Sequence record: SRR20825006_226
Length of the DNA stretch: 64,000 bases
Strand: one strand, 5' to 3'
Both the position numbers and the translations under genes were made by a program. Positions 1 through 21,345 of this stretch are shown here, in pieces. Under the pieces are notes generated by a model. That model searched no databases, was not told where the DNA came from, and saw nothing but the letters and a program-made list of their open reading frames with translations. Position 1 is the stretch's first letter. Each line of letters begins with the position of its first letter.

Positions 1-1151
1 TTCTTGCCAATTTTTGGAGCAAGCCCCATCATAACAGCTTCAGACATTAATAAACCACCGCCGATATCCAAATTCTTGCGCATTTGGTCTTTTGCAACAA
101 CAATATTTTCAAGAATAAACCGAGAGTGTGATAATGATCCAGAGAAAAGAACAAACGCTTCAGGAATTACAATCCACTCCAAGTGCATTGGGCCAACTGC
201 TCTCTCGTGCTCTTGAATCATAGCAACTAGCTGAGAACTCACTGTTTCGCGTAAACGATGTGCAATCGCAATTATAGGCTCACAAGAAATTGGGTTTCGT
301 TTCTGAGGAAGCGTTGTGCTTGCCCCACGACCAACTTCAAAAGGTTCGCTAACTTCACCGATTTCTGAGCGCATCAAAATTGCAACTTCATTCGCAATTT
401 TCCCTAAGGTAGAAGCAACTAAAGAAATCCAAAAAACTAGTTCAGCCCATCTATCTCTTGCTGTATGCCAAGTAATATCTGGAGATTCCAAACCAAGCTC
501 CTTCATCATTTCGGTTTGAACAGTTAGTCCCTTATCACCTAGAGTTGCGAAGGTACCAACTGCACCAGCACACTGACCAACTAATACTCTTTTCTTAATT
601 TCTTGAAAACGTTCTTTGTGCCTTAAGACCTCATCTAACCAAACTGCAACTTTATAACCAAATGTGATGGGTGCCGCTTGCTGTTGAAAGGTTCTTCCAG
701 CCATCACCGTATTTCTATGGTCTTTTGCAACTTTTTGAAGAGCTTTTATAATGCCATTCAAATCCTTTTCTATTAAATCGAAGGCATCTCTAATCTGGAG
801 AACAGTACCAGTGTCTAAAATATCCTGTGTAGTTGCTCCATAATGAACCCATCGAGCTGTTTCCGCGTCGCAAGATTTTGTTAACTGATGCACAAATGGA
901 AGAATTGGAAAACCAACTCGGTCAAACTCTTCCTTCATAGCTTTGTGATCCAGTTTCTCTAACTGGGCTATTTCTTCGATCTTTTTTGCTGTTCCAGCAG
1001 GAATTACCCCAACCTTTTCTTCAGCTTTTGCTAACGCTACCTCAGTATCCAACCAAGCTTGTACTCGTTGGTCATCTGAAAAAATAGCACGCATTTCTGC
1101 GGTGCCAAACATATCGCGATAGTAATTGGAATCAATAATTGATGAGGGCAT
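1..1151 (-). CDS. Fumarase/aspartase (adenylosuccinate lyase / 3-carboxy-cis,cis-muconate cycloisomerase-like) superfamily lyase, 3' end beyond window
   Basis: Absent from the ORF track because it has no stop in the window. Translated by hand from ATG at 1151: MPSSIIDSNYYRDMFGTAEMRAIFSD...HYGATTQDI...GRTFQQQAAPITFG...GAVGT...GASTTLPQKRNP...QEHER, i.e. the three conserved regions of the superfamily. Confidence 0.85.
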   Translation of the reverse strand, partial: MPSSIIDSNYYRDMFGTAEMRAIFSDDQRVQAWLDTEVALAKAEEKVGVIPAGTAKKIEEIAQLEKLDHKAMKEEFDRVGFPILPFVHQLTKSCDAETARWVHYGATTQDILDTGTVLQIRDAFDLIEKDLNGIIKALQKVAKDHRNTVMAGRTFQQQAAPITFGYKVAVWLDEVLRHKERFQEIKKRVLVGQCAGAVGTFATLGDKGLTVQTEMMKELGLESPDITWHTARDRWAELVFWISLVASTLGKIANEVAILMRSEIGEVSEPFEVGRGASTTLPQKRNPISCEPIIAIAHRLRETVSSQLVAMIQEHERAVGPMHLEWIVIPEAFVLFSGSLSHSRFILENIVVAKDQMRKNLDIGGGLLMSEAVMMGLAPKIGK

Positions 1152-1152
1152 G

Positions 1153-1872
1153 TTAGATTTTTTTTGATATTTCTTTTAGTCGTTGAATAACTGATTCATC
1201 TACTTTTGTTGAGTAAATTAAATCCAAATTTTCACGAATCGTTTCAATTGGCCAATTCCACCATTGTATTTCTTCTAATGCTTCGATGATATTATCCTCG
1301 AAACGCATTTTAATTTTCTTTGCTGGTACACCTGCTACAATTGAATAAGGTTCTACATCTTTGGTAACCACGGCACCAGCACCAATTATAGCACCATTAC
1401 CGACTTTAACTCCTCGAAGAACTATAGCATTAGATGCCAGCCAAACATCATTTCCAATTACACAAGTTCCAAATTCGTTATATCTATTTTTTAAATCTTC
1501 ATTGGTATCATGACTAATGTTTCCATCCATTAGCATTCTAAATCTCCATAAAGGACTTGTAGTAACATTTGAAAATTCGTGATTACCTCCACCAATAGAA
1601 ACATTCCATGCCAATGAGCAAAAACTACCCACTTCTGCTGTTCTTATTGAAGTCCCTATACCTGTATAAGTAAATTTCCCAATCTTTGATTTTAAAATAT
1701 AATTTTGTCTATTTATTGAAATATTAGACTCTAAACTACTCCCAATGATAATTGCATAATTCCCTACAATTACCCCACTACCAATACTACTGTTTTTGAT
1801 TTCAGCTTCCTTGTAAACTTTTACATCCTTTTCTAGTTCGCTAGAAATAATTTTAGCTGTTGGTGATATCAT
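1153..1872 (-). CDS. Hexapeptide-repeat (left-handed beta-helix) acyltransferase, CatB/Vat-like
   Basis: Hexapeptide repeats, IGNDVWLASNAIVLRGVKVGNGAIIGAGAVVTKDVEPYSIVAGVPAK, C-terminal WWNW. Confidence 0.85.
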   Translation of the reverse strand: MISPTAKIISSELEKDVKVYKEAEIKNSSIGSGVIVGNYAIIIGSSLESNISINRQNYILKSKIGKFTYTGIGTSIRTAEVGSFCSLAWNVSIGGGNHEFSNVTTSPLWRFRMLMDGNISHDTNEDLKNRYNEFGTCVIGNDVWLASNAIVLRGVKVGNGAIIGAGAVVTKDVEPYSIVAGVPAKKIKMRFEDNIIEALEEIQWWNWPIETIRENLDLIYSTKVDESVIQRLKEISKKI

Positions 1873-1882
1873 ATTATTCGTA

Positions 1883-3133
1883 TTAGATTACCGTATCTTT
1901 AAAAATATCTTTTCTCATAGTCTGTGAACCATTGGTGTCATAAACAGATAATCCACTAATAGCTATAGCTATTTTTTCTTCCAATTCTGATTTACTTTTC
2001 GCTTTAGTTAAAAAAGCGCCCACTCTATCGCCACTAGTCATACTCGAATTTATTGTCATTCCTTTAGTTTTGAAGAAGTAAAATTCATTTATAATACCAT
2101 CTTTTAGTAACTCTTTATGCCCCGTTATATAATCAAATACTCCAGGTTGAGCATATATGAGAGTTGTTGAATAGAATGATTTAGTTTCTTCATATTCTAT
2201 TTTTACAGGAATATCGAGATAAGAATCTATGGTTGCATCCAAAATGTCAAATCCTGTTATAATCTTAACCATACTATAGCTAAGTCCACCACCTATTCTA
2301 GACGCAAATTCAATAACGCTAACGTCATCTTTATTCACTATTGCTTGAAAAAATAATGAAGTATTTTCTAAATTGAAGGCTTTTACAATCCTTTTGGCTA
2401 TCTCGATAACGTTTTCGTATGCCCTCTCTGAAAGCTCGACTGGGATTCGAGATCCGACCGATTGCAAAACTGTATCTTCACCTGCATAAGCAGTTTTAGC
2501 TTTTTCACGAGTCATGATTAAAGTAACTTCTTTGTTTTGCACAAAAAAATCAGCTTGTATTTCTTTTCCTTCTACAAATTCTTCTACAATTGCTTCTTTA
2601 GACCTGCTAATTTCTAGAGCCTCTTTTAGATACTTGCCTAATTCAGCTAAATCTGATGCTTTTCTAACACCTTTTGAACCTGTAGTATCAGATGGCTTAA
2701 CCACTAGTGGCAAAGATAATCCAATATCTTTAATATCTTCAAGTTCACTAACCATAATGTATTTAGATGTAGGAATACCATTATCCAACATCATTTTTTT
2801 CATTAATCCCTTATTAGTTACATTCAAAGCCGTTTCATAGCTATATGGCTTTGGCAAACCTAATTTTTCTGCTACATAACAAGCCGTAACATTTGCTTGA
2901 TCTATAGAAGTACTAATAACCAAACTTGCTGAAAGTTCTTTTGCAATTTCTAGAACCTTCTCTTGATCTAGCGTACTTTCTCTTAAATGTTCATCTGCAA
3001 CATTTTTTGCAGGAGGATTTTCGTAATAATCTATAAGAACAGTGTAATACCCTCTCTTCTTCAAATTTTCAATAAGTGCTTTGTGAGGTGCAGTACCACC
3101 AAGAACAATTGCTATTTTTTTCTTAAGATTCAT
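1883..3133 (-). CDS. ATP-grasp ligase
   Basis: N-terminal Rossmann-like domain (IVLGG), NKGLMK, PLVVKPSDTTGSKGV, IVEEFVEGKE, VIEFASRIGGG. Confidence 0.85.
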   Translation of the reverse strand: MNLKKKIAIVLGGTAPHKALIENLKKRGYYTVLIDYYENPPAKNVADEHLRESTLDQEKVLEIAKELSASLVISTSIDQANVTACYVAEKLGLPKPYSYETALNVTNKGLMKKMMLDNGIPTSKYIMVSELEDIKDIGLSLPLVVKPSDTTGSKGVRKASDLAELGKYLKEALEISRSKEAIVEEFVEGKEIQADFFVQNKEVTLIMTREKAKTAYAGEDTVLQSVGSRIPVELSERAYENVIEIAKRIVKAFNLENTSLFFQAIVNKDDVSVIEFASRIGGGLSYSMVKIITGFDILDATIDSYLDIPVKIEYEETKSFYSTTLIYAQPGVFDYITGHKELLKDGIINEFYFFKTKGMTINSSMTSGDRVGAFLTKAKSKSELEEKIAIAISGLSVYDTNGSQTMRKDIFKDTVI

Positions 3134-4100
3134 ATACTAACTTCTTATGGTCGATTAGTTCCGATTGCCCGTTTTCAAATTGTTTTATATTAGTAAAAGC
3201 CTCATGCATCATATTTTCGAATGATTCACGGGTAATACCACTAATGTGTGGTGTAAGAATTACATTATCTAACCTTAAGAGCTCATTGTCTATTGAAATT
3301 GGTTCTTGCTCAAAAACATCAAGCCCCGCACCTCTCAAGTGTCCTGATTTTAAATAATGTATTAATTCTTTTTCGTCAATTAGTTTTCCTCTTGAAGTGT
3401 TTATAATTATAGCCCCTGCCTTCATCATCAAAAACTCATTAGACCCAATTAATTTTTCTGTAGCACTACTAAGTGGACAATGAAGACTTATAATATCTGA
3501 CTTTATCAAGAGATCAGAAAAAGAACTGTATTTAAGATTCAATGAAGACTCTACTTCTTCTGAAAGTCTAGAAGGCTTACTGTAAATGATGTTTACCCCA
3601 AAAGGTTGTAACATTTTTGCAACATTCATCCCGATATTACCAAGCCCAATGAGACCAACTGTTTTACCATAAAGATCATTAGTTTGTATACCAAGTTCAT
3701 GTTTCTTCCATACACAAGACTTTAAAGTAGAGTCAACTGTATTAAGTCTTCGCAATACTGAAAGTAATAACATCATTGTATGCTCTGCAACACTTCGAGC
3801 ATTTACACCTGGATTTACATAAACAGGTATGTTTTTTTCTTTCAGAGCTTTCAGGTCAAGGGAATCCAACCCGACCCCTGTTCGTTGTATCATTTTCAAA
3901 TTAGGGGCTGCATTTATGATATCTCTATCAATTTTAATACGACCCCCAACTAAAAAATAGTCTGCTTTGCTAGCTTTCTTGATTATATCTTCTTTAGTTG
4001 CTTCATCTATTGATATAATATTAAAACCACTAGGTAGCACTTTTTTTACAACAGATAAGAGTGCTTGTGAATAGTAATTGGTATGTAGTACAAATGGCAT
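3123..4100 (-). CDS. D-isomer-specific 2-hydroxyacid dehydrogenase (SerA/glyoxylate reductase-like)
   Basis: GVGLDSLD, NARSVAEH, GLIGLGNIG, LHCPL, INTSRG, GAGLDVFEQEP, TPHISG (Arg/Glu/His triad present). Confidence 0.9.
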   Translation of the reverse strand: MPFVLHTNYYSQALLSVVKKVLPSGFNIISIDEATKEDIIKKASKADYFLVGGRIKIDRDIINAAPNLKMIQRTGVGLDSLDLKALKEKNIPVYVNPGVNARSVAEHTMMLLLSVLRRLNTVDSTLKSCVWKKHELGIQTNDLYGKTVGLIGLGNIGMNVAKMLQPFGVNIIYSKPSRLSEEVESSLNLKYSSFSDLLIKSDIISLHCPLSSATEKLIGSNEFLMMKAGAIIINTSRGKLIDEKELIHYLKSGHLRGAGLDVFEQEPISIDNELLRLDNVILTPHISGITRESFENMMHEAFTNIKQFENGQSELIDHKKLVYES

Positions 4101-4111
4101 TCTCTTACAGT

Positions 4112-5011
4112 CTACTTTATTGAGCCTTTTTGTGAAATAGTAGCCTCGGGGTAATAACTGTCAATAACGCGTTTCACAAGACTAACCTGCTTAGCTCTTT
4201 TCTTCGCATCAGCATCCGTTGTATCCCAACTATGAGTTTTTGCTACTGAACCACCTGTTTTCAAATAGATTGGTGATGCCACTCTAATCATTTCAGGTAC
4301 TTCATAATGTCTTATAAACCCACCTGTAGATTCAGGGTTTTCCGTATGTATATCAATGGGAATATCGATAGCCTGTCGCATTGCACTTAACATTTGCAAT
4401 TGTATATCTCTAACAGGATTGATAGAATTTGTACCTACTGATTCTAGTAGCTTTGCAGAACATGGGTTTCCATGTCCCGTATGAGCTGAAATTTTAAAAT
4501 GACAATCTTCTGGAATTTCTCCATGTTTTCTCATTTCATTTAAAACCCATAAACAGCCTTCATCGTAAACCAAAAAGCCTCTACAACCTAACCTAGCTCC
4601 ACGCCGAACCTCTTCCATAGCTCTTACAATCTGCTCCTGACCTCTTAAGCGGTATCCCATTCGCTGACCTTCTGATGTATTCACGGAAGCACTTGTGTCA
4701 TTAGTTGCACGTGGCCCAATTGCTAAAACAAGCTCCACCTGCCATTGCTTAGCTAATGAAACCATTTCTTGAATCTCCTCATCTAACAGCATCATTATAC
4801 CCTTAGTCTGAGTAACACGATGAATGGTTAGTCCATACACATCTAATTGGTTTAATAAAGCCTTCATTGAACCAGGACCTTGAATCCCCGGAACTTCAAA
4901 TCTATACTGGGCTCCATCAGAAAACCTCTTCTTAGAATCTGGCAAATCGTATGCATCACCAGATGGTAAACCAATCTTTTCTAAAAACAATCTGCTATCT
5001 TTCATATTCAT
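4112..5011 (-). CDS. Conserved hypothetical protein, probable TIM-barrel (resembles proteins loosely annotated as U32-like 'peptidase')
   Basis: 299-aa ORF in the operon; alternating beta/alpha pattern (YRFEVP, ELVLAIGP, GFLVYDEG, FKISAH, IPIDIHTE, IYLKTGG); family assignment from recall only. Confidence 0.55.
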   Translation of the reverse strand: MNMKDSRLFLEKIGLPSGDAYDLPDSKKRFSDGAQYRFEVPGIQGPGSMKALLNQLDVYGLTIHRVTQTKGIMMLLDEEIQEMVSLAKQWQVELVLAIGPRATNDTSASVNTSEGQRMGYRLRGQEQIVRAMEEVRRGARLGCRGFLVYDEGCLWVLNEMRKHGEIPEDCHFKISAHTGHGNPCSAKLLESVGTNSINPVRDIQLQMLSAMRQAIDIPIDIHTENPESTGGFIRHYEVPEMIRVASPIYLKTGGSVAKTHSWDTTDADAKKRAKQVSLVKRVIDSYYPEATISQKGSIK

Positions 5012-5043
5012 CTAATTAAATTGATTTTATTATTACAACACCA

Positions 5044-6420
5044 TTAAATAATATCATACAATGTATTGATATTATGCTCTACATCAATATTCCAAATTGT
5101 TTGTATAATCTGTTCTGATTCTTCACTAGTTTTTCCACTAAACACTGCTAATGAGAAAAATTTATCCTCTAACTCTTCATCTGAAAGAGCTGTTTCCGGC
5201 TCCCCTTTTGGAAGGTCTATTCTCGCAGTAAAAGTCTGATTATCTTTCGTTATTACATCAACAATTGCTGCACGTTTTTGAGGCGCCAAATCAGTTAGCT
5301 CTTGCCTATCAATAACGCTAACCCTTTTAGTCAAAGACAAAACATCAATGTCATCTATTTTTTCTAAACTGAACTCGTCCATACCGGCCTTCCCAGAACA
5401 CAAAGCTACAGATACGCTGTAAGGAATACTCATTTTAGCTGAATTAACTCCAAGAATATCAGTATGTTCATGACCTCCTACAGCCCAGTAATACGTTGTA
5501 ACTTTCACATTATTAATGTCTGTATAACTCAACTCATTATCTGATCTTATTTTTAAAGCTGCTTCAATTGCTGGGTGACAATGTCTACATGCTGCATAAG
5601 GTTTCATATAGATATTGTGAATTCCTAATTGATTACCACGTTTCCCAATCAACTCCGATAAATCATACTCATCAGCAACCATTGAAATAAGGCCCATTTC
5701 ACCAGATAACACATCATCATGTCCATTAAAACCTGCACTAGCTAAAGTCACAGCAATCAATCCGTTAAGAGAAGCTTGCCCAGAGTTATATGGCTTCAAC
5801 TCAGAACGACCTTTAATTACTCTAAGAATACCCGAGGCACTAGTTGCAGCAGCAGAAAGAGCATTTTTAATCTGCTTATGCGAGAATCCTAGCATTGTAG
5901 AAATTCCTATTGCAGCTCCAATTGTTCCGCAAATACCCGTTGCGTGGTAACCTTTATCTTTTGCAGAAGGTTGAATTGTTCTTGCTAGTCTAATAGCTGC
6001 TTCATAGCCTAGAATTATACCTTTTAAAAAATCTTTTCCACTTACTTTTTCGGACTCAATAAGCGGTATTAGTGCAGAAATAATTGGAGCACCTGGATGG
6101 AACATTCCGAACCTTTCGCCATCATCAAGCTCTGCAACATGGGCATTCATACCATTCAATAATACCGCATTTTGTAGAGATGATTTATGCTTATAGCCAA
6201 CTATTTTTCCCGCTCCCTCAACTGAATCAGACTTTAGGAAATCTAAAATAGAGTCGCCTTTTTCCCGAAGCATTTTACTTCCTGCTAATGTGACTCCCAC
6301 GTAGTCTATTAAGCATCTTTTAGCTTGATAGATATCTCTATCTGAAATCTGTATCTCAAGTAATTCAGAAATAAAGTTATCTGTAACATTTCCTACAAGA
6401 TCATTCCCCATAAGATTCAA
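5044..6420 (-). CDS. MmgE/PrpD family protein
   Basis: LNGMNAHVAELDD, HPG, GYEAA, YHATG, KPYNSG, KPYAACRHCHP, AKMSIPYSV, PKGEPE. Confidence 0.9.
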   Translation of the reverse strand: MNLMGNDLVGNVTDNFISELLEIQISDRDIYQAKRCLIDYVGVTLAGSKMLREKGDSILDFLKSDSVEGAGKIVGYKHKSSLQNAVLLNGMNAHVAELDDGERFGMFHPGAPIISALIPLIESEKVSGKDFLKGIILGYEAAIRLARTIQPSAKDKGYHATGICGTIGAAIGISTMLGFSHKQIKNALSAAATSASGILRVIKGRSELKPYNSGQASLNGLIAVTLASAGFNGHDDVLSGEMGLISMVADEYDLSELIGKRGNQLGIHNIYMKPYAACRHCHPAIEAALKIRSDNELSYTDINNVKVTTYYWAVGGHEHTDILGVNSAKMSIPYSVSVALCSGKAGMDEFSLEKIDDIDVLSLTKRVSVIDRQELTDLAPQKRAAIVDVITKDNQTFTARIDLPKGEPETALSDEELEDKFFSLAVFSGKTSEESEQIIQTIWNIDVEHNINTLYDII

Positions 6421-6445
6421 TTTCCATTAGTTCTAGAATTCATTC

Positions 6446-7588
6446 TTAAGCTATTACTAGTTTTAAATACGAAGCTTCATTTTCAACCACGCCATAAGCT
6501 TCTGCTTTTCGCATAACTTTTTTAGCCCAATTTCTATGAGGATTAATCTCATTCATTTTATTAGCCTTAGCACTTTTTATTACCCCACCACTAGTGCCCA
6601 ATATTTGAGATGCATCTTCATATTCTTCTCTTGTAACCGCTTGCATTGCATTTACAAATTTTAAGTGAGATGGATGGATAATCGTTTTACCAACAAAGCC
6701 ATTTGCTTTATCAATAATTACTTCTCTCAACAATCCATCAATAGCTTCATTCAGAATAATATTTCTTGTTGATAGAGTTCTATGGATATCTTCCTCAATC
6801 AAATGTATGATATCTTCTTTTTTATAAGCTAAAAAGTACTCCCAAACCGGAGCTGAAACTGTATAATCTTCACCCACTCTGTTAAAGTAATTAAGGATAT
6901 CAGATAAACAATCTCTCACTGTAAGTATATCGTATATAGAAGATGTAATACCTCGTCTAACTCCAAATAAAGAAGAGAAGTCTGTGCCTCCAACTCTAAT
7001 ATTTAGAATCAGTTTTTTAAATGGCTCAATAGCATCTTTTAACATGTTCAATTCATTTACTCTCGACTCTCTATAAGCTATAGCCTTGCCTTCAAGAATT
7101 GGCATAGCATAAAGAAGAACACCTAACTTGTTATTTATTGAGTCTAATTGTTCCAAATATTCCTTAGCATTATTGCTATAAAATTTAGGGAAAACGAAAC
7201 CTGATAGTATATCTGCCTGGGAGGCATTAAGTTTCTTTGAGAAGTCTTTAAATTGCTTAAGGTTTCTTACCCTCAAGAATATAAGAGGGATATCATTATG
7301 AGAAAGTTCGCCTCTACTTATTGCATTCGAAATTTCGTCTAAATGATTTAGTACATTTATTTCAGCTTCATGAACGTCTTTTTCTTGAATGGCATCCTCA
7401 AAGCACATTACCATCGAGGTTAGAACAGGCATTTCCATGTTTAATATTTTATCCACTATGTGCTTAGTTCCTGGCATATATAAAGTGCCACCTAAACAAT
7501 ACTGCAATAACCCCTTTTCTGTGTACTTATTAAACTCTACAGGTTCTTTAAAAAATTTAAAATTTGAGTTGTATTGATTGTGTTTCAT
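6446..7588 (-). CDS. HpcH/HpaI-CitE-like TIM-barrel C-C bond lyase
   Basis: LGGTLYMPG, MCFEDAI, IFLRVRN, GFVFPKF, MPILE, RVGGTDF, SAPVWEYF, GFVGKTIIHPSH, KMNE..PH..WA. Confidence 0.8.
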   Translation of the reverse strand: MKHNQYNSNFKFFKEPVEFNKYTEKGLLQYCLGGTLYMPGTKHIVDKILNMEMPVLTSMVMCFEDAIQEKDVHEAEINVLNHLDEISNAISRGELSHNDIPLIFLRVRNLKQFKDFSKKLNASQADILSGFVFPKFYSNNAKEYLEQLDSINNKLGVLLYAMPILEGKAIAYRESRVNELNMLKDAIEPFKKLILNIRVGGTDFSSLFGVRRGITSSIYDILTVRDCLSDILNYFNRVGEDYTVSAPVWEYFLAYKKEDIIHLIEEDIHRTLSTRNIILNEAIDGLLREVIIDKANGFVGKTIIHPSHLKFVNAMQAVTREEYEDASQILGTSGGVIKSAKANKMNEINPHRNWAKKVMRKAEAYGVVENEASYLKLVIA

Positions 7589-7607
7589 TTTTTTCTCTTT
7601 AAAGAAA

Positions 7608-8681
7608 TTAGAAATTTTCTACCATTATTTTTGCTATTAACTCTTGGTCTTTTAGCTCTAATGTCTGAAATAATGGCAAACATAAAATCTTGGAAGAGAT
7701 ATGATGAGATGCAGTCATCTTTTTTGACATTACGTAATTCAAAGAATCAAGACTTGGGAAAAAATACCTCCTAGGAAATATTTGATTTTTCTCGAGCAAA
7801 GATTTCATTCTTAGCATTGTATCTTCACTATCAAACACTACTGGGTAGTAGGCGTAGTTCCAATCGGCATTTTTGTCAATACTAATAAATTGAAGAGGGG
7901 CATTTTCAAGTAAACGATCGTAATTTTTGCATTGTTTTTTTCTCGAACTTAATATATCCTCAATATAAGATAGATTACAAAGCCCCATAGCTGCATGAAA
8001 CTCTGAATTTTTTGCATTAATCCCAATACCATGAAATGCCTCTGGGCCATTATGTCCAAAGTTCCGCATATAACTAAGCTTTGCAAATACCTCAGGATCT
8101 TTAGCGAACACCGCACCACCTTCGATTGTATGAAACAACTTCGTAGCATGAAAACTTGTAGTACTTACATCGCCATACTCAAAAACAGATTTCCCTTTAT
8201 AGGTAGTGCCAAAACAATGTGCAGCATCATAAATCACTTTTAAGTTATACTCTTCTGCTATTTGCTGTATGGCATCGATATCACATGGATTCCCAAATAC
8301 ATGAGTAGCAAGTATCGCACTAGTTTTGGGCGTAATTGCCTCTTTAATTTTAGAGGGATCGATATTAAAAGTATCTTTATCAATATCTACAAAAACAGGT
8401 TTACAACCTTCCCAGACTATAGAGGACGTTGTAGCGACGTATGAAAAAGGTGTAGTTATAATTTCACCATTCAAACTAAGAGCCTTAATTGCAATCTGTA
8501 AAGCGATAGTCCCATTTGATAAATAAAGAAGATTTTCAATATCTAGATATTCCTTAAGCTTCTGCTCTAACTCTCTAACTAAAGGTCCATTATTGGTTAA
8601 ATGCTCCCTCTCCCAAATTCCTTCGAGGTATTTCTGATAATCTTCAATGGGAGGCATAAAAGGTTTTGTAACAGGCATCAT
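7608..8681 (-). CDS. DegT/DnrJ/EryC1/StrS PLP aminotransferase, VioA-like (dTDP-4-amino-4,6-dideoxyhexose synthesis)
   Basis: VTKPFMP...TNNGPLV, SNGTIAL, TPFSYVAT, YDAAHCFG, SFHATKLFHTIEGG (PLP lysine), NAKNSEFHAAMG. Confidence 0.88.
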   Translation of the reverse strand: MMPVTKPFMPPIEDYQKYLEGIWEREHLTNNGPLVRELEQKLKEYLDIENLLYLSNGTIALQIAIKALSLNGEIITTPFSYVATTSSIVWEGCKPVFVDIDKDTFNIDPSKIKEAITPKTSAILATHVFGNPCDIDAIQQIAEEYNLKVIYDAAHCFGTTYKGKSVFEYGDVSTTSFHATKLFHTIEGGAVFAKDPEVFAKLSYMRNFGHNGPEAFHGIGINAKNSEFHAAMGLCNLSYIEDILSSRKKQCKNYDRLLENAPLQFISIDKNADWNYAYYPVVFDSEDTMLRMKSLLEKNQIFPRRYFFPSLDSLNYVMSKKMTASHHISSKILCLPLFQTLELKDQELIAKIMVENF

Positions 8682-10141
8682 AACTGAAACAGGGTTTTAA
8701 TTTTTAATGGTATTTTATTACCAAATAAAGATACTAAAATACGTACTATCTCTGGCTTTATAATCAAATTTCCAACAGTATAAATTGCCCCAGCTAGCCC
8801 TAAATATAGAATTAAAAATACTACGCTTTTCGCTGGAAAAAAATATGATAGTGAGCCAATCGTCAATACCATTGGGAAAGACAATAATAAAACTTTTAGA
8901 ACATCTTTTGCTTGTTCAGCTATTGTATAGTCCAAAAACTTAGCCGTATAATACGTGTTAATAATCAACGCGATATACGAAGATATTACCTGCCCAATCA
9001 GTAAACCATAAATCCCAAACTGTAAGCCAATTAAAATGGCTATAGTTGTATTTACTTTTTTTATAATTTCTAATTTTAAAAAAAGATCGGATCGCCCCAA
9101 TACTTTTAGAATATTTAGGTTTATCGAATGTAAGTGATATAAGATTCCAGACACACACACAATTTGAAGAAAAGGTATAGAGGGTGCCCATTGTGGCCCT
9201 AACACGAAAACTACAATTGGTTCTGCTAATATTATTAGTAACAATATTCCAGGGAAAATAAGAAAAGAACTTAACTGTATTACTTGTCTATAGCCTCTTT
9301 TTAACCTTTCCGGTTCTTTCCCAGCTTTCGCTAGCAACGGATACGTAATTTTTTGAATAATACCTACTAAATTCTTGCTCGCTAAATCCTGCATTTTTTT
9401 AGCTTGCGTATAGTAGCCTAGTGTAGATGCTAAGAAATATTTACCAATTACCAATTTATATACATGTTGATAAATAGTGCTTATAATACCAGATATCAAT
9501 AATTTATAACCAAAACCAAATAATTCATTAAATGAATTTTTATTGAATTTAAATTTTATTACTGAAGGCTGCAACATCCACAATATCAAACTACTGCAAA
9601 AGGCGACTAATAAATACTGTGTGGCTAAGGCCCATACACCATATCCGTTATAAGCCATGATAATTGAAAGAGTTCCAGCAATTACCATTGCAGGGATTTG
9701 AGCATAGGCCTGCTTCTTAAACTGTAGTTGTTGCGTCATTTCGGATCTTTGAATAATAGCGATACCAAAAAAGATAATGGATAATCCCATCACGCGAGTT
9801 AAGTCAATTAATTCAGGACGACTATAAAAATCAGCAATATATGGAGCTCCCATGTATATCAAACCATAAAAAATGAAGGAAACCAATAAGTTAAACCAGA
9901 ATACTGTAGAACGATCTTGGTCTGTTATTTCCTCTTTTCTTATTAAAGATTGCCCCATACCACTATCAACGAAGGTTTGACCTACTTCAAAAAAGATCAT
10001 AAGCATAGCTACTAGACCAAAATCCTCAGGGCTAAGTAATCTAGCAAGTATAACAAATATTACAGATTGCAATATTTGTTGCCCAAACCTTTCTATTGCT
10101 ACCCATATAAAACCTTTTGAGGCTTGGGTTTTAAGAGACAT
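8678..10141 (-). CDS. wzx: Polysaccharide flippase (Wzx/WzxC family)
   Basis: [12 protein letters not shown] motif, about 12-14 hydrophobic segments, LGYYTQA, located in a polysaccharide locus. Confidence 0.88.
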
Positions 10142-11006
10142 TTCTGTTTACTAGATTTTTTAGATAAAGCCCATATCCATTTTTTTTTAATTCTTCAGCT
10201 TTCTCTAGCACTTTTTCCGTACTAATCCATTTTTTTCTCCATGCAATCTCTTCTAAACAAGCAATTTTATATCCTTGTCTACGCTCAATAATTTCTACGT
10301 ACTGAGCAGCCTCCATCATTGCATCATGTGTCCCTGTATCTAACCATGCATATCCTCGGCCAAGTACTTGGACATTTAAAGACCCAAGCTCTAAATAAGC
10401 TTGATTGACCGAGGTAATTTCTAGCTCCCCTCTATGTGATGGCTTTACATTCTTTGCAACTTCTACAACTCTATTGTCATAGAAGTAGAGCCCTGTTACA
10501 GCTATATTACTCTTTGGTTTATCAGGCTTTTCTTCAATGGAGATGGCTAAATTCTCTTTATTCATTTCAACAACACCAAATCGCTCAGGATCGCTTACTC
10601 TGTATCCGAATACAGTAGCTCCATTGAGTTCTGTTACAGTATTCGTAAGTATTTTTCCAAAACCTTGTCCATAAAAAATATTATCCCCGAGGATTAGCGC
10701 TACATCATCGTCACCGATGAACTCTTCCCCAATAATGAAGGCTTGAGCTAAACCATCTGGACTAGGTTGAATAGCATAGCTTAATTTTATCCCCCACTCT
10801 GAACCGTCACCTAAAAGTCGCTTAAAACTCTCATTATCTTCAGGAGTAGTAATAATCAGGATTTCATTTATACCTGCAAGCATCAGCACAGACAAAGGGT
10901 AGTAAATCATTGGCTTATCATACACAGGCATTAACTGCTTTGATATTGCTTTTGTTACAGGGTATAGTCGAGTTCCGCTTCCACCAGCTAAAATTATTCC
11001 TTTCAT
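10131..11006 (-). CDS. rmlA: Glucose-1-phosphate thymidylyltransferase
   Basis: [60 protein letters not shown]. Confidence 0.97.
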
Positions 11007-12055
11007 TTTTTCCCTGTTCCTAAACGTTCTAGATTATAATTTTTATCTGTCACAGCCTCAACCCAATCCATATTTCCCAAATACCATTCAATGGTATTCT
11101 TAATCCCTGTTTCAAAAGTTTCTTCGGGCTTCCATCCTAATTCACGCTCTATTTTAGACGCATCAATAGCATATCTAAAATCGTGACCAGGGCGATCCGT
11201 TACAAATGAAATTTGGTCTCTGTATATAGTTTCTTTGGGCATTAATTCATCTAAAGTATCACATATGGTATGAACTACATCAAGGTTTTTCTTTTCGTTG
11301 TGTCCACCAATATTATATGTTTCCCCTAGTTTTCCTTGTTCAATAACCCGCCAAAGAGCTCTTGCATGATCATCAACATAGAGCCAATCTCTTACATTAT
11401 CACCTTTTCCGTAAACAGGTATATTTTCACCCTGTAATGCTTTAAGAATAACAACTGGAATTAATTTTTCAGGGAACTGAAATGGCCCGTAATTGTTAGA
11501 GCAATTTGTTATCAAAACGGGTAAACCGTAGGTATGGTACCAGGCTCTAGCAAGATGATCTGAGGAAGCTTTACTTGAAGAGTATGGCGAACGGGGATCA
11601 TACGCAGTTTCTTCTGTAAACAGGTCGTTATCTCCCAACGATCCATAGACTTCATCCGTTGAAACGTGTAAAAATCTAAACGATTCTGCAGATTCTTTAT
11701 CCAAGCCCAACCAATATTTTTTTGCACTCTCCAAAAGGACATGAGTACCAACAATATTTGTTTTAATGAATTCCGCTGAGCCATCGATGGAACGGTCTAC
11801 GTGAGACTCTGCCGCCAAATGCATAATTACATTTGGATTGTATTTTTCAAAAATCCTTGCAACTTCTTTACCATCACAAATATCAACTTGCTCAAAAGAA
11901 TATCTAGTAGATTCTGCCACAGATTTCAAAGATTCTAAATGGCCAGCATAAGTCAATTTATCAATATTGATCACTTCATGCTTTGTGTTTGTGATAAGAA
12001 ATCGAATCAAAGCTGATCCGATAAACCCTGCACCACCTGTTACTATTATTTTCAC
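11003..12055 (-). CDS. rmlB: dTDP-glucose 4,6-dehydratase
   Basis: [51 protein letters not shown] start. Confidence 0.97.
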
Positions 12056-12085
12056 GTTATACCTTACCTTAATCTTACTTTTTAA

Positions 12086-12610
12086 TCAAAATTCCTCGCC
12101 GTAGATAAGTAATCTCGTCTTTTCAATAGATACGAAATCATTTTTACTGTAAACGACGGTTCGAATTTTTCTATTTACTAATAACTCTGCCTTCACCACT
12201 AACCTTGCTAAATACTCCGTATTTATGCTGTCTCCAATAAGAGTTATATCAATTATTGGAGCGTCTAACCCTTTCGCTAAATCCCCTGTTAAAAAAACCG
12301 TATCAACCTCTCCAATCTTTCGCAACACTTGGTCAACAATCTTGTCAATTCCAAAATGTTTAAACGCAATATTCTGAAATTCATTAAAAAGCGGAAAATC
12401 TGTATTTACTTTATACATTTTTTTATTCCCAACTTTTTTAGCACTTATCAACCCCGCCTCTTCAAATCTATTTAGTTCAATCCTAACAGAGTTGGTGCTC
12501 TCATTAAAATCTTGGGAAAGCCCACGCAAATACGCACTACTTTCAGGGTTTAAAAAAAACCGCAAAAGAAGCTTAAGTCTTGTTTTTGATGGAATTAACG
12601 TGTCGAGCAT
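12086..12610 (-). CDS. Winged-helix (ArsR-like) transcriptional regulator with C-terminal degenerate nucleotidyltransferase-like domain
   Basis: SKTRLKLLLRFF...YLRGLSQDFNESTNSVRIELNRFEEAGLI wHTH; C-terminal VFLTGDLAKG...IIDITLIGD; immediately upstream of rmlB. Confidence 0.75.
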   Translation of the reverse strand: MLDTLIPSKTRLKLLLRFFLNPESSAYLRGLSQDFNESTNSVRIELNRFEEAGLISAKKVGNKKMYKVNTDFPLFNEFQNIAFKHFGIDKIVDQVLRKIGEVDTVFLTGDLAKGLDAPIIDITLIGDSINTEYLARLVVKAELLVNRKIRTVVYSKNDFVSIEKTRLLIYGEEF

Positions 12611-12614
12611 ATAG

Positions 12615-12641
12615 ATATTGAGTAATAATATTACTCAATAT
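12615..12641. promoter_or_regulatory. Perfect 13-1-13 palindrome, probable operator of the adjacent regulator
   Basis: ATATTGAGTAATA-A-TATTACTCAATAT, 4 nt from the regulator start codon (12610). Confidence 0.7.
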
Positions 12642-12715
12642 ACGTGATTTAAAACAAAATCTCAATCATACCCAAAAAATCATTGACACAACAAAATTCA
12701 GATTTCCACAAACTA

Positions 12716-13264
12716 TTATTTACCACCTAATCTGTCTAACAAGATAACGGTTGAGGCGACTGCTGATACAGTGGATGCGAAAACCCCTAAATAGTCTCTA
12801 AATGTTGCTTTTCTCTTTACTCGCACGGCAACAATCTGATTATTCTTTAGCACAAACTCTTTCATCCCCTCAGGATAAGGTTCTTCGAAGCGATATTTAA
12901 ACTTAGTAATAGTTACACCACCATCTTCATTGTCATATTCTTGAATATTAATTTCCACCCTCATCTTAGACCAATCTATTTGGGTTTGACTATCGCTAAG
13001 TGTTCTTGGGCCAAAACTATATGAAATTAACCTAGCCAAGTCAGTTCCTTTAGGAACTAAGTATCTACCTGAACTACCAACATCTCCCCAAACGTTTACC
13101 GAATCCACCAGTTCTCCTGGCTCTGCAATACGGATAACCCTATCAGCTTGTCGAAACTGAGGGGAATTATAAAATTGGGTAGTCTGTGCTTGAGTTTCTG
13201 CATTTATTAGGAATATAAATCCTAGTAAAGCCCCGATGTATAAATACTTAAATAGATGTTGCAT
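12716..13264 (-). CDS. Small exported SLBB-domain protein, Wza-like polysaccharide export component
   Basis: Signal peptide, VNVWGDVGSSGRYLVPKGTDLARLISYSFGP (SLBB-like), C-terminal amphipathic/hydrophobic helix; context near wzc. Confidence 0.55.
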   Translation of the reverse strand: MQHLFKYLYIGALLGFIFLINAETQAQTTQFYNSPQFRQADRVIRIAEPGELVDSVNVWGDVGSSGRYLVPKGTDLARLISYSFGPRTLSDSQTQIDWSKMRVEINIQEYDNEDGGVTITKFKYRFEEPYPEGMKEFVLKNNQIVAVRVKRKATFRDYLGVFASTVSAVASTVILLDRLGGK

Positions 13265-13327
13265 TCTTTATAAATTCTTAAATTTGTTTAAAGATATTGA
13301 TTTATTCTTTCTTTTCGACGTTTAATT

Positions 13328-14032
13328 CTAGTATCGCAAAAGTCTATGTGATTCATTTCTATCAAAACCTAGTTTGCTCAACCCATAAAGTACTTTTTCA
13401 ATATTATATTCGATTCGAAAATTTTCTACTTCCCATTTATCTGTATCTACTATACAGCAAGAAGCTCTAAAATCATCGTCTCTAGATTGGCCTACACTTC
13501 CTGGGTTTATCAAGTACTTGTTTCCCTTAATAAATGTCATGTTTCCAATTTGACTTGAAACGAAAGCTGGAACATGAGTATGCCCTACAAAACACAGTGG
13601 AATTTCTATTTCATTAAGAACTTTTCGCGCTTTAATAGCACTGTCAATATATGTCCATTTTTCTGGTTCAATAGGAGATGCATGAGATGCAATCCAAGTA
13701 GAATTATCAGTTAAAGTATAAGGCCTATTTGCTAACCACTCTAATTGTTCCGCATCTAAGATACCTTGAGACATCTCTATCAACCTTCTATTTGGATTTC
13801 GGAAGTGGTTAAGACTCAATTTCCCTACCACACCAGCATCATGATTCCCTAAAACAGTGCCAATAGCTCTTTCTTTTATAATATCAATACATTCTGAAGG
13901 AAACGGACCATAACCAACTAAATCACCTAAACATATCCAACAATCTGGGTTATAGGAATCAAGGACTTCTAGAACCGCCTCTAAAGCGGGTAAATTACCA
14001 TGTATATCCGAAATAAGTGCTATTTTTGACAT
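13328..14032 (-). CDS. Calcineurin-like metallophosphoesterase
   Basis: DIHGN, GDLVGYG, GNHD, HASP, GHTH, NPGSVGQ. Confidence 0.9.
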   Translation of the reverse strand: MSKIALISDIHGNLPALEAVLEVLDSYNPDCWICLGDLVGYGPFPSECIDIIKERAIGTVLGNHDAGVVGKLSLNHFRNPNRRLIEMSQGILDAEQLEWLANRPYTLTDNSTWIASHASPIEPEKWTYIDSAIKARKVLNEIEIPLCFVGHTHVPAFVSSQIGNMTFIKGNKYLINPGSVGQSRDDDFRASCCIVDTDKWEVENFRIEYNIEKVLYGLSKLGFDRNESHRLLRY

Positions 14033-14057
14033 AGATTAAATTAAGCAAAATGCTTTC

Positions 14058-14072
14058 AGTATTATTAATACT
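14058..14072. promoter_or_regulatory. 7-1-7 palindrome related to the 12615-12641 operator, in the divergent phosphoesterase/wzc intergenic region
   Basis: AGTATTA-T-TAATACT versus core AGTAATA-A-TATTACT at 12621-12635. Confidence 0.45.
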
Positions 14073-14173
14073 ATAAACTAAGAGTATTAATGGCTAAATA
14101 ATAGTAGCATTGACAAATTGTTTTCCTATCTTATTCAGGATATATTAGAAATCAATATTATTTCAATTAAGAG

Positions 14174-16513: not shown

Positions 16514-16531
16514 TTCTGATTGTAAGCCAAG

Positions 16532-16570
16532 AAAAGCCTCATATAAATTCTGTTATATGAGGCTTTTTTT
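16532..16570 (+). terminator. Intrinsic terminator after wzc (possibly bidirectional)
   Basis: AAAAGCCTCATATAA-attctg-TTATATGAGGCTTTT followed by further T's. Confidence 0.85.
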
Positions 16571-16666
16571 ATGCAGTACTTTTTATGATTACGAAAGGGA
16601 GAAATTTTAGTAGCTAGAACTTTTTCATATACAACGTTAACTTAGCAACGAGTAAAGTTCAATTTA

Positions 16667-20495: not shown

Positions 20496-20574
20496 ACATT
20501 TTATTTTTGGTTTTGTATATTGAGCCTTCAGAAAAGCGGTTACAAATGATAATTTTTAAGTTTACAATTTGCAC

Positions 20575-21345
20575 ATGAAATTTTACGTTTGCATAAAAAT
20601 GGTGCCTGATGTCTACGCACCCATCCAAGTTAAAGAAGGCGAATTAATTATGGACGCTGATCGCGTAGTGCTAAATGCCTACGATGCTTCAGCTGTTGAA
20701 GAAGCCTTGGTTCTTTCTGGTAAACACGGAGGCGAAGTTGAAGTTATTTGCATTGGCCCTGCTAAAGCATCAGAGACTATTCGAAAAGCATTGGCAATGG
20801 GCGCAGATAAAGGCACGCACATACAAACTTCAGGAACCGAAGGCTATGACTCTGGAAGTTATGCTCAAATTTTAGCTACTTTTTTTAAGGATAAAGAATT
20901 TGATGTTCTAGCATTGGGGAAACAATCTCAAGATTCTGATTCTGGACTCACAGGTAGCATGGTTGCAGAACTTTTAAGCTTACCCTACGCCACAAATGCC
21001 GTAGGCCTTGAAGCTGAGGACAATGCGCTTATTGTTAAACGCCAAGGCGATGCTGGCCAGGAAATGATCGCTTTACCCTTCCCTTGTGCCGTTACTTGTT
21101 CAAACGATATGAACAATCCTCGCATTCCAAATCTTAAAGGTATTATGGCTTCTAAACGCAAGCCTATCGATGCACTTGAGGTTAGTTCTCTTGGCCTAGA
21201 CGAGAATACTCTTACTGCAAAAACAAAAACACTTAGCTACCAAGATAAGCCAGCACGACAAGCTGGCAAGAAGTACGAAGGTGAAGCAGACGAAATTGCT
21301 CGCCAAGTTGCTCAGTTATTAGATACTGAAGCTAACGTTATTTAG
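20575..21345 (+). CDS. etfB: Electron transfer flavoprotein beta subunit (EtfB/FixA)
   Basis: VCIKMVPD, NAYDASAVEEAL, RKALAMGAD, GKQSQDSDSG, PRIPNLKGIMASKRK; ATG 20575 preferred over TTG 20569. Confidence 0.92.
   Translation: MKFYVCIKMVPDVYAPIQVKEGELIMDADRVVLNAYDASAVEEALVLSGKHGGEVEVICIGPAKASETIRKALAMGADKGTHIQTSGTEGYDSGSYAQILATFFKDKEFDVLALGKQSQDSDSGLTGSMVAELLSLPYATNAVGLEAEDNALIVKRQGDAGQEMIALPFPCAVTCSNDMNNPRIPNLKGIMASKRKPIDALEVSSLGLDENTLTAKTKTLSYQDKPARQAGKKYEGEADEIARQVAQLLDTEANVI

Follow-up and report, generated by a model that had tools for sequence, protein, structure and literature searches.

The closest described counterparts of the locus reported here, a minus-strand gene string at one end of a 64,000-nucleotide stretch of sequence record SRR20825006_226 (the whole stretch is called the window below), come from sugar acylation and from central carbon metabolism. 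As in the N-acylation of dTDP-4-amino-4,6-dideoxyhexoses of O-antigens, e.g., N-acetylation of the VioA/VioB type or the acylated perosamine of Vibrio cholerae O1, the window has RmlA, RmlB and a DegT-family aminotransferase followed by putative acyl genes in a Wzx-dependent locus. The perosamine of V. cholerae O1 bears a 2,4-dihydroxybutanoyl (3-deoxy-L-glycero-tetronyl) group, i.e., 2,4-dihydroxybutanoate serves there as the N-acyl group on a 4-amino-4,6-dideoxyhexose. The methylcitrate cycle (PrpC, PrpD, aconitase and PrpB) and the glyoxylate shunt (citrate synthase, aconitase and isocitrate lyase) resemble the gene string in another respect, as they combine a PrpD-family enzyme, a hydratase and a C-C lyase with a TIM barrel of the phosphoenolpyruvate (PEP)/pyruvate type, work on hydroxy- and ene-tricarboxylates and end in a 2-oxo acid. 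At the early branch points of phosphonate synthesis (PEP mutase and then a decarboxylase, reductase or aminotransferase of phosphonopyruvate) and at the sulfopyruvate steps of coenzyme-M synthesis (ComC and ComDE) one 2-oxo acid is likewise passed to alternative and exclusive enzymes, namely a thiamine-pyrophosphate (TPP) decarboxylase, a 2-hydroxyacid dehydrogenase similar to phosphoglycerate dehydrogenase, or a ComC-like Ldh_2 enzyme. Compared with these systems, the cassette in the window would be a new version of non-sugar glycan substituent biosynthesis that includes an uncharacterised enzyme family, and most likely the module makes a small hydroxy acid and attaches it to a cell-surface sugar. 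No published description of this gene set was found in the full-text literature searched, the coverage of which does not extend to subscription journals and supplements.

The open reading frame (ORF) list of the 64-kb window shows a head-to-tail row of 14 minus-strand ORFs between position 14032 and base 3 (Table 1). Directly after rmlB, rmlA, wzx and the DegT gene come, on the same strand, the genes of a C-C lyase resembling CitE and malyl-CoA lyase (CCL), an MmgE/PrpD-family protein (PrpD-like), a barrel protein (ORPH), a D-isomer-specific 2-hydroxyacid dehydrogenase (2HADH), an ATP-grasp ligase, a hexapeptide-repeat transferase and a lyase of the aspartase/fumarase superfamily (Lyase_1). 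From the DegT gene onward the spacings are 19, 25, 32 and 11 nt, then an 11-nt overlap, and then 10 and 1 nt. All genes named in the original prediction were present and co-directional on this strand, with matching spacings; the gene order also stood, while the span of 1-8681 given for it did not, as rmlB, rmlA and wzx lie at 8678-12055. The string is presumably a single operon. A consensus scan of it gave no excess of promoter-like sites (47 versus 55.6 expected from shuffled sequence) or of terminator-like sites (8 versus 6.8 expected), and no rmlC or rmlD was present in it according to the ORF list.

The differences from the described systems are considerable. In contrast to the methylcitrate cycle and the glyoxylate shunt, the cassette has no genes of the citrate synthase, aconitase or isocitrate lyase/PrpB families, its PrpD-like protein fails the 2-methylcitrate dehydratase models, its hydratase is either a fumarase-like enzyme or a pair of Lyase_1 and a cyclase, an extra U32-like barrel is present, and the output would go to a glycan instead of into central metabolism. 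Unlike in the phosphonate and coenzyme-M pathways, PEP mutase (TIGR02320) was over cut-off in 2 of 15 carrier genomes (2 of 11 of the decarboxylase type) and in neither case inside the cassette, ComA was found in none of five carrier genomes although the positive controls gave signal, and the window has no decarboxylase. As to VioA/VioB, the predicted acyl donor of the cassette would come from a tricarboxylate-type pathway and be joined by an ATP-grasp enzyme, not by an acyltransferase dependent on CoA or acyl carrier protein.

Evidence for a defined module comes from its recurrence. ORPH has 4639 homologues at E <= 0.001, and the best 120 of these all reach 79-99% identity in spite of their origin in different phyla. 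A one-genome-per-species scan gave 379 stretches with an ORPH relative; the best 80 of these, with up to 10 kb on each side, and the window make up a set of 81 loci, which was searched with the window proteins and with representative proteins of families that recur in the neighbourhood. The 55 loci in which ORPH has 5 kb or more of sequence on each side are called full-flank loci. Since ORPH defined the set, it is in all 81 loci; CCL was found in 74 of them and the PrpD-like gene in 72. As the same gene set recurs in the 80 other loci, the arrangement in the window is not due to chance. At the hydro-lyase step a class-I fumarase-like pair (61 loci) or Lyase_1 (14 loci) was found, never both, and the six loci with neither are all on contigs of <8 kb; among the full-flank loci the fumarase-like pair is present in 46, Lyase_1 in nine and neither in none. 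In each of the 13 other loci with Lyase_1 a PF04199 'cyclase' gene comes after it, and as the window is cut at that point, such a gene is expected just beyond its base 1. The branch enzyme is a TPP decarboxylase in 48 of the 81 loci, almost always together with an aldo-keto reductase (AKR), 2HADH in 17 and Ldh_2 in 14, without any overlap; the two loci with none of them are short contigs. The cassette is thus a core (CCL, PrpD-like, ORPH and one hydro-lyase option) with one of three interchangeable branch enzymes. All genes of the seven-gene set proposed earlier are present in the window, the last of them cut by its edge, but the set is not one fixed unit and is expected to continue past the window edge.

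According to record titles, carriers of the cassette belong to Bacteroidota, Bacillota, Fibrobacterota, Desulfobacterota, Lentisphaerota, Nitrospirota, Atribacterota and Pseudomonadota, and many are rumen or gut lineages. Cultured carriers, again by title, include Billgrantia campisalis A4 (2HADH with Lyase_1), Mongoliibacter ruber DSM 27929 (Ldh_2 with Lyase_1), and Mediterraneibacter massiliensis and Butyricimonas muris (TPP decarboxylase with the fumarase-like pair). The option with Lyase_1 and the cyclase is mostly found in Balneolales, Cytophagales, Flavobacteriales, Chitinophagales and Halomonadaceae. We take these lineages to be aerobic and those with the Fe-S fumarase-like pair to be anaerobic, but this is a tendency only, with a Bacteroidales and a Victivallales metagenome-assembled genome (MAG) as exceptions. 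No match to ORPH DNA was found in the Escherichia coli genomes searched, and the plasmid collection held only distant ORPH relatives of 32-47% identity.

The cassette is linked to surface glycans in most loci. When a glycan gene was defined as DegT, a flippase, RmlA/B, a glycosyltransferase, an initiating transferase or Wzc, such genes were present in 44 of the 55 full-flank loci. The window is of the hydroxy-acid type (2HADH or Ldh_2), and of the 23 full-flank loci of this type 22 have glycan genes, 21 DegT, 21 ATP-grasp and five the hexapeptide gene; among the 32 of the decarboxylase type the corresponding numbers are 22, 11, 11 and 0. The ATP-grasp gene often lies between core genes, e.g., in the order 2HADH-PrpD-ORPH-ATPgrasp-CCL. 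These counts support the earlier proposal of a dedicated acid route coupled to an amino sugar, and homologous cassettes do not usually occur away from polysaccharide genes. A near-identical locus in a Balneola MAG (L004) has, two genes downstream of Lyase_1 and after the cyclase, a homologue of the WecF-like TDP-4-acetamido-4,6-dideoxygalactose transferase (140.7 bits, below cut-off).

Two further points concern O-antigens. WbqC-like genes (PF08889, 228.8 bits for the scanned copy of L013) lie inside L013 (4146-4862) and L048 (15932-16636), and this family presumably stands beside N-acylated 4-amino-4,6-dideoxyglucose in some enterobacterial O-antigen clusters. The O-antigen of Tenacibaculum maritimum, which we assume to bear 2-hydroxyglutarate, made this species a possible carrier of the cassette. 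The lead was dropped after a term search of the available part of the paper on the O-antigen cluster (PMC9796276), in which 'hydroxyglutar', ATP-grasp, PrpD and lyase were not found.

Gene content, family membership, the rules of co-occurrence and the fold of ORPH are shown by the data, and a scheme can be drawn from them. That the core leads to a 2-oxo acid follows mainly from the three alternative branch enzymes, all of which act on 2-oxo acids. The outline that we favour, and regard as rather probable, is that the core makes a small 2-oxo-dicarboxylic acid, which in the window is reduced to its D-2-hydroxy form, joined as an amide to dTDP-4-amino-4,6-dideoxyhexose by ATP-grasp catalysis, and O-acetylated. 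The core would convert central carboxylic acids, via an aconitate-like intermediate, to a small 2-oxo-di(tri)carboxylic acid by steps like those of the citrate, methylcitrate and glyoxylate cycles: a C-C bond would be formed or cleaved, loss of water would give an aconitate-like ene-acid, oxygen would be added again, and an aldol or retro-aldol reaction would take place. At the hydro-lyase step of the window, Lyase_1 could lactonise an ene-tricarboxylate and the PF04199 hydrolase could open the lactone, which would amount to a net hydration; in most other hosts the Fe-S class-I fumarase-like pair would perform this step. 2HADH in the window would then reduce the 2-oxo acid to a D-2-hydroxy acid, while elsewhere Ldh_2 would give the L-isomer, and TPP decarboxylase with AKR a hydroxy acid one carbon shorter. 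RmlA, RmlB and DegT would supply dTDP-4-amino-4,6-dideoxyhexose, to the 4-amino group of which the ATP-grasp enzyme would amide-link the acid, probably via the distal carboxylate, leaving a free alpha-hydroxy-acid end on the glycan. The hexapeptide enzyme would O-acetylate the acyl hydroxyl or the sugar, and the WecF-like transferase and Wzx would pass the sugar into the polymer.

As the acid itself, 4-hydroxy-2-oxoglutarate from citrate-derived glyoxylate and pyruvate is a tentative and rather doubtful candidate. In the candidate path, citrate would be converted to isocitrate and then to glyoxylate, which would undergo aldol addition to pyruvate; the products would be 2,4-dihydroxyglutarate in the window and 2,4-dihydroxybutanoate in the decarboxylase branch. 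Isocitrate lyase had no match in three of five carrier genomes; the other two are over the Pfam cut-off, G164 with a full-length match and G006 with a short one (47.5 bits), which coincides with a place scoring below cut-off on the PEP mutase model. The absence of isocitrate lyase was rejected as support for a private glyoxylate route, as it is not discriminating.

Profile searches of Pfam and NCBIfam with curated cut-offs were used to assign the window proteins to families. CCL covers positions 2-320 of the 320 in PF15617 (383.6 bits, cut-off 28.4) and fails the equivalog models of CitE (21.1 bits, cut-off 443.4) and RipC (24.2, cut-off 375). A profile of 20 CCL homologues weakly matched the citrate lyase beta subunit (3qll, E 0.029), malyl-CoA lyase (5ugr, 0.067) and CLYBL (5vxc, 0.18), and these matches align on the motifs FEDA and G-F-x-G-K-x-x-I-H-P only. 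In the PrpD-like protein both MmgE/PrpD domains pass Pfam (164.6 and 122.1 bits, cut-off 32.1), and the 2-methylcitrate dehydratase equivalogs are failed (46.5 bits versus 950, 35.7 versus 575, and 24.9 versus 458). Its best solved relatives are IRG1 of Bacillus subtilis (7bra, 120.6 bits), iminodisuccinate (IDS) epimerase (113.5 bits) and cis-aconitate decarboxylases (65-69 bits), and no chain of a 2-methylcitrate dehydratase in the PDB matched it at E <= 1e-10. According to the accessible part of PMC6789909, a conserved set of Asp, His and Lys is common to the decarboxylases, epimerases and dehydratases of the PrpD fold, and these shared residues therefore cannot tell which reaction the PrpD-like protein performs.

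Since the window cuts Lyase_1, the full-length protein was scored via the 98%-identical copy of L004. The best PDB matches of this copy are 3c8t, a structural-genomics 'fumarate lyase' (421.8 bits), the trans-aconitate decarboxylase Tad1 (371.7) and carboxymuconate-lactonizing enzyme (CMLE; 336), and no IDS or ethylenediaminedisuccinate (EDDS) lyase was among the 27 chains listed at E <= 1e-20. It stays below cut-off on the PcaB models (485 bits versus 595, and 326.7 versus 355.75) and on the XcbD model of coenzyme-M synthesis (444.3, cut-off 600), and barely passes purB TIGR00928 (329.2 versus 326.2), which is outscored by three other models. In the consulted part of PMC11880804, a serine of the SS-loop and Arg360 are reported to be essential for Tad1. 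In the window protein, S-T-T-L-P-Q-K-R-N stands where the loop S-S-x-x-P-x-K-x-N is described there, and it has an E-R pair that would correspond to E359-R360 of Tad1 in an approximate by-eye alignment (PMC11880804, same part). Thus IRG1/cis-aconitate decarboxylase and Tad1, both aconitate-binding, are the closest solved and named relatives of the PrpD-like protein and Lyase_1, which agrees with the di- and tricarboxylate theme proposed at the outset, and the two proteins point to an aconitate-like ene-tricarboxylate as the putative intermediate. Similarity to these relatives is moderate. The cassette differs from their systems in that both families stand together in it and a hydratase can replace Lyase_1, and this speaks against a simple decarboxylation to itaconate.

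ORPH is unusually strongly conserved. The median identity to the window protein is 78% for ORPH (72.5-82.4, n = 79), 62% for RmlA, 56% for CCL and 42% for the PrpD-like protein, and the ranking of ORPH over CCL over PrpD-like was found in 65 of 65 loci. Such conservation, far above that of its neighbours, reflects constraint and not recent transfer alone. No Pfam match was obtained for ORPH even at E <= 1, nor any NCBIfam match, and PDB sequence searches with ORPH alone and with a 35-sequence profile gave chance-level matches only (E >= 0.082). A first AlphaFold model, based on 20 near-identical sequences, had a predicted local distance difference test (pLDDT) value of 70.6 and generic Foldseek matches; it was replaced by a model based on an alignment of 35 sequences that reaches 29-30% identity. 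This model is a (beta/alpha)8 barrel with a mean pLDDT of 93.3, which confirms the 'orphan TIM barrel' that had been predicted. Its structural matches include CutC (Z 16.0, root mean square deviation (rmsd) 3.0, 203 residues), the U32 protein Mk0906 (5d88; Z 15.1, rmsd 2.8, 184 residues) and class II aldolases (Z about 14.7), with many other TIM barrels within 2 Z units.

With its modelled TIM barrel, ORPH may share the fold of U32 peptidases and CutC, and relatives with 38-41% identity (P0126, P0127 and P0130) pass PF01136 (26.0, 25.6 and 27.5 bits, cut-off 22.4), whereas ORPH itself has no PF01136 match at E <= 1 and stands in an organic-acid gene context. Some homologues are named 'U32 family peptidase' or 'peptidase' by NCBI, and the protein atlas repeats such labels. 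The U32 hydroxylases include RlhA, TrhP and UbiU/UbiV, and a four-cysteine 4Fe-4S site is present in UbiU/V. One invariant cysteine (C184) was found among 20 close homologues of ORPH and no invariant or near-invariant cysteine among 35 family members; lacking a conserved cysteine set, ORPH therefore lacks such a four-cysteine Fe-S site. Family-wide, S26, E39, G142, D150, R212 and P247 are conserved in the 35-sequence alignment, and K173, R234 and K251 are among the near-invariant residues.

Distant ORPH relatives occur in other surroundings. On a plasmid of Enterobacter chuandaensis (L085, 6895-13607) an ORPH relative lies two genes upstream of a 2HADH and a class I/II aminotransferase, together with an APH-type kinase and a haem-oxygenase-like iron enzyme. 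In Streptomyces nigrescens (L086) and Thermomicrobium roseum (L084) the relatives belong to clusters for sugar-acid catabolism that also hold IclR and an MR/MLE dehydratase, and L086 also has a gluconolactonase. The relatives in these three loci are 33-42% identical to ORPH, and a sugar ABC transporter is among such distant contexts. Together with the class II aldolase matches of the model, these contexts give a weak hint that ORPH could perform 2-oxo-acid or aldol chemistry.

Further scores concern the enzymes that would supply the amino sugar and attach the acid. For DegT, the DesI-type dTDP-4-dehydro-6-deoxyglucose aminotransferase model (252.4 bits, cut-off 650) and the Fuc4N transaminase model (186.9, cut-off 375) both fail; the enzyme probably acts at C4 of dTDP-4-keto-6-deoxyglucose, as far as its family relationships indicate. 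The ATP-grasp protein reaches 27.4 bits on LAL_C2, just under the cut-off, and its best PDB match is 4dim (84.9 bits), with L-amino-acid ligases at about 48 bits. Its orthologues, with 45-46% identity, are also present in the decarboxylase-type loci L012 and L041, and as they serve both branch types, the ligated carboxylate is probably the distal one, which is common to both products. The hexapeptide protein is below cut-off on its NCBIfam models (TIGR03308 143.5, Vat 127.4, CatB 124.7 bits, and NeuD/VioB N-acetyltransferase 59.2 versus 160.8), and its gene is present in eight loci, all of the 2HADH or Ldh_2 type. In L010, L023, L027 and L039, where no hexapeptide gene is adjacent, Acyl_transf_3 membrane O-acyltransferases are among the cassette genes; these may substitute for the soluble hexapeptide enzyme of the window. 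The TPP enzyme of the decarboxylase branch is found at L025 (8843-9982) and in 47 other loci.

Several points weigh against the proposed scheme. The enzyme substrates, the reactions and the sequence of the core steps are deduced solely from what the enzyme families are known to do. The usual substrates of CitE-like enzymes are CoA thioesters, and no CoA ligase, CoA transferase or thioesterase was found in the cassette. To our knowledge, there is no precedent among PF04199 enzymes for lactonisation followed by hydrolysis. The structural matches of ORPH are nearly tied across many TIM-barrel families (Z 16.0-12.9 over 50 rows), so that the aldolase reading is weak and no function follows from the fold (Foldseek, VIA). 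Moreover, the window ends inside Lyase_1, and the downstream end of the operon falls outside the data. The score of the TPP enzyme on the phosphonopyruvate decarboxylase model fits phosphono- or sulfo-pyruvate better than a carboxylate. Finally, glycan genes, aminotransferase and ligase are all missing from 11 of the 55 full-flank loci, of which four have a LysR regulator, and the locus L066 joins the core to a TRAP-TAXI transporter and lacks CCL; accordingly, the core can yield a free metabolite or operate in the catabolic direction.

The last point raises the question of whether the core is a stand-alone pathway, making or breaking a free acid or alcohol that is not attached to the glycan in the window, where ATP-grasp and the hexapeptide enzyme would then act elsewhere, e.g., on an amino-acid substituent. 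The 11 glycan-free loci, mostly from Ruminococcus/Oscillospiraceae, hold seven genes in the order PrpD-AKR-TPP-ORPH-CCL-FumB-FumA, and because the core is intact there without aminotransferase or ligase, it acts on free acids. The L066 region (8563-17000, Atribacterota MAG) encodes a PrpD-like protein, ORPH (73% identity), a 6PGDH-like reductase, a TRAP DctM fusion and a TAXI binding protein; an amidohydrolase, Ldh_2 and a FumB/FumA-like pair are also present, and no glycan genes. This gene combination, possibly a catabolic version of the pathway, and the distant ORPH relatives in sugar-acid catabolic clusters are both in keeping with a stand-alone role. On the other hand, such a role does not account for the 22 of 23 hydroxy-acid loci with glycan genes and the 21 of 23 with DegT and with ATP-grasp, for the ATP-grasp genes placed between core genes in many loci, or for the packing of wzx and DegT with the rest of the window string at gaps of 1-32 nt, and we consider it unlikely for the window. 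In the amine-addition chemistry offered as an alternative by the original prediction, Lyase_1 would add an amine (that of the sugar or an amino acid) to fumarate and the PrpD-like protein would epimerise the N-succinyl product, giving a chelating N-(dicarboxyethyl) glycan. As in IDS and EDDS catabolism, a PrpD-family protein stands beside a lyase of the aspartase/fumarase superfamily, the two genes share the window cassette, the PrpD-like protein has IDS epimerase (113.5 bits) as one of its best solved relatives, and the superfamily includes EDDS lyase (PMC11880804, in the part consulted). However, the lyase of the cassette belongs to the CMLE/Tad1 branch, with no IDS or EDDS lyase among the 27 listed chains, and it is absent from 61 of the 75 loci showing a hydro-lyase option, where the fumarase-like pair replaces it, never together with it, and the PrpD-like gene is kept. 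The core is also intact in the 11 loci without aminotransferase, and the branch enzymes would be left unexplained. This alternative was not supported and is regarded as very unlikely.

Another possibility is a route to a phosphono- or sulfo-2-oxo acid independent of PEP mutase, in which ORPH or CCL forms the C-P or C-S bond, the branch enzymes act as 'pull' enzymes, and the glycan carries phosphonolactate or sulfolactate (as in the window) or hydroxyethyl-phosphonate or -sulfonate. The TPP enzyme, which belongs to the decarboxylase branch and is not in the window, does pass the equivalog model of phosphonopyruvate decarboxylase (TIGR03297, 405.1 bits, cut-off 312.5). For the Ldh_2 branch enzyme the top-scoring model is that of L-sulfolactate dehydrogenase (301.7 and 306.2 bits, cut-off 500), and for the window 2HADH it is that of phosphoglycerate dehydrogenase (247.7 bits, cut-off 454; glyoxylate reductase 230, also below cut-off), presumably the family of the phosphonopyruvate reductase of valinophos. 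The XcbD score of Lyase_1 points in the same direction. Given the near absence of PEP mutase and ComA from the carrier genomes, any phosphonate or sulfonate substrate would need a new origin, but no cassette enzyme resembles either of them in sequence, and no PEP mutase family match was found on any window protein scanned (Pfam and NCBIfam). A role of the PrpD-like and fumarase-like proteins upstream of phosphonopyruvate is hard to write; ATP-grasp needs a carboxylate, which a C2 phosphonate or sulfonate does not have, yet ATP-grasp genes accompany the decarboxylase branch; and all S and P assignments except that of the decarboxylase, which the window copy does not have, are below cut-off. We therefore regard this route as quite improbable, and the more specific claim that ORPH and its lyase partner form a new way to a 3-substituted pyruvate (phosphonopyruvate or sulfopyruvate) without PEP mutase or ComA as a long shot. 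If it were true, hundreds of species, with many gut Firmicutes and Bacteroidota among them, would carry phosphonate or sulfonate acids on their surface glycans, made by an unrecognised route of C-P or C-S bond formation, and the window copy would attach D-phosphono- or D-sulfo-lactate. The automatic annotation of the cassette TPP genes as phosphonate enzymes may be wrong. It is also conceivable, though hardly credible, that ATP-grasp and Lyase_1 form an aspartate-dependent amidation pair with the logic of PurC/PurB or ArgG/ArgH, converting a carboxylate of the glycan or of the acid to a primary amide with loss of fumarate. The best NCBIfam model of the ATP-grasp protein is the N-terminal half of PRK02186, an ATP-grasp/argininosuccinate-lyase fusion (100.9 bits, cut-off 625), Lyase_1 weakly matches the C-terminal half (46.9 bits), and full-length Lyase_1 is just over the purB cut-off. 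Such a pair is at odds with the ATP-grasp orthologues (43-62% identity) in fumarase-type loci without Lyase_1, with the higher scores of Lyase_1 on CMLE, Tad1 and XcbD than on purB, and with the constant pairing of Lyase_1 with the PF04199 gene and not with the ligase.

Returning to the glycan-linked module, its distribution indicates frequent exchange. The nearest comparison genome has no cassette, yet its rml genes are 82% identical in nucleotide sequence; ORPH is present in five of 151 genomes of the same order and in two of 22 of the same genus. The window and L004 have 96% nucleotide identity over 4119-14088 and 93% over 1-1154. The segment between them, from the ORPH stop to the Lyase_1 start (1154-4118, 3 kb), holds 2HADH, ATP-grasp and the hexapeptide gene in the window; in L004 (10894-16470, 5.6 kb) it holds Ldh_2, an ATP-grasp gene with 52% amino acid (aa) identity, an unknown 262-aa gene, a short-chain dehydrogenase/reductase gene and KASIII. 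This difference looks like a recent cassette swap, which would change the stereochemistry of the substituent. A quick maximum-likelihood tree was built from 67 CCL proteins (LG+G4, with SH-aLRT as the only support measure); it requires 11 or more changes of branch type and three or more of hydro-lyase type, and copies from Bacteroides, Butyricimonas and Fibrobacter nest inside clostridial clades. Judged from these sequence comparisons, the cassette is widespread, horizontally mobile and modular.

The surroundings of the string were also considered. The divergent Wzc-type gene (Table 1) is read as the upstream edge of the polysaccharide locus. Beyond it, on the plus strand at 20569-26100, genes of electron transfer flavoprotein (ETF) beta and alpha subunits, an ETF-quinone oxidoreductase-like protein and an acyl-CoA dehydrogenase adjoin the glycan locus; they appear to be ordinary housekeeping genes that mark its end. 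Given the divergent Wzc-type gene and the housekeeping genes beyond it, the minus-strand string starts a polysaccharide locus. Homologues of the 174-aa protein head the loci L008 (42% identity) and L016 (49%), and the 174- and 182-aa genes precede rmlB; the 174-aa protein may be a locus-specific regulator.

Table 1. Coordinates of the gene string and of the divergent gene upstream of it in the window, with profile scores
Feature	Coordinates	Strand	Evidence
Wzc-type chain-length/tyrosine-kinase protein	14174..16513	+	GNVR, Wzz and AAA_31 domains; NF008568 248.8 bits, below cut-off
Metallophosphoesterase, first gene of the string	13328..14032	-	PF00149 65.3 bits; 81-82% aa identity to the L001 and L004 copies
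182-aa protein	12716..13264	-	No Pfam/NCBIfam match; 83% in L001, 97% in L004
174-aa protein	12086..12610	-	Weak winged-helix signal, PaaX E 0.0018, below cut-off
RmlB, dTDP-glucose 4,6-dehydratase	11003..12055	-	TIGR01181 494.5 bits, above cut-off of 365.1
RmlA, glucose-1-phosphate thymidylyltransferase	10131..11006	-	TIGR01207 498.4 bits, above cut-off of 360.65
Wzx-type MOP flippase	8678..10141	-	PF13440 (Polysacc_synt_3) 304.6 bits; O-glycosylation flippase model 299.3, below cut-off of 720
DegT-family sugar aminotransferase	7608..8681	-	PF01041 297.9 bits
CCL, CitE/malyl-CoA-lyase-like C-C lyase	6446..7588	-	PF15617 383.6 bits
MmgE/PrpD-family protein, IRG1/IDS-epimerase-like branch	5044..6420	-	PF03972 and PF19305, 164.6 and 122.1 bits
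ORPH, 299-aa U32/CutC-like TIM barrel	4112..5011	-	No Pfam/NCBIfam match; fold from model
2HADH, D-isomer-specific 2-hydroxyacid dehydrogenase	3123..4100	-	PF02826 201.6 bits, PF00389 99.4 bits
ATP-grasp ligase	1883..3133	-	GARS_A 55.9, ATP-grasp_4 47.7, Dala_Dala_lig_C 46.3 bits
Hexapeptide-repeat transferase, xenobiotic O-acetyltransferase type	1153..1872	-	Hexapep 53.5 bits
Lyase_1, CMLE/Tad1 branch	3..1151	-	PF00206 168.7 bits; 383 of about 447 aa, the C-terminus lying beyond the window edge

Based on the results of this study, three unknowns are brought together in one cassette. ORPH is an uncharacterised enzyme that is more conserved than RmlA. The 'phosphonopyruvate decarboxylase' occurs in genomes without PEP mutase, which matters for the genome mining of phosphonates. 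Moreover, the pair of Lyase_1 and the cyclase could be an Fe-S-free stand-in for an Fe-S hydratase. The charge and antigenicity of surface glycans, and their recognition by phages and the immune system, are set by non-sugar substituents, and a fixed core combined with two choices of hydro-lyase and three of end product would offer a compact means of diversifying serotypes.

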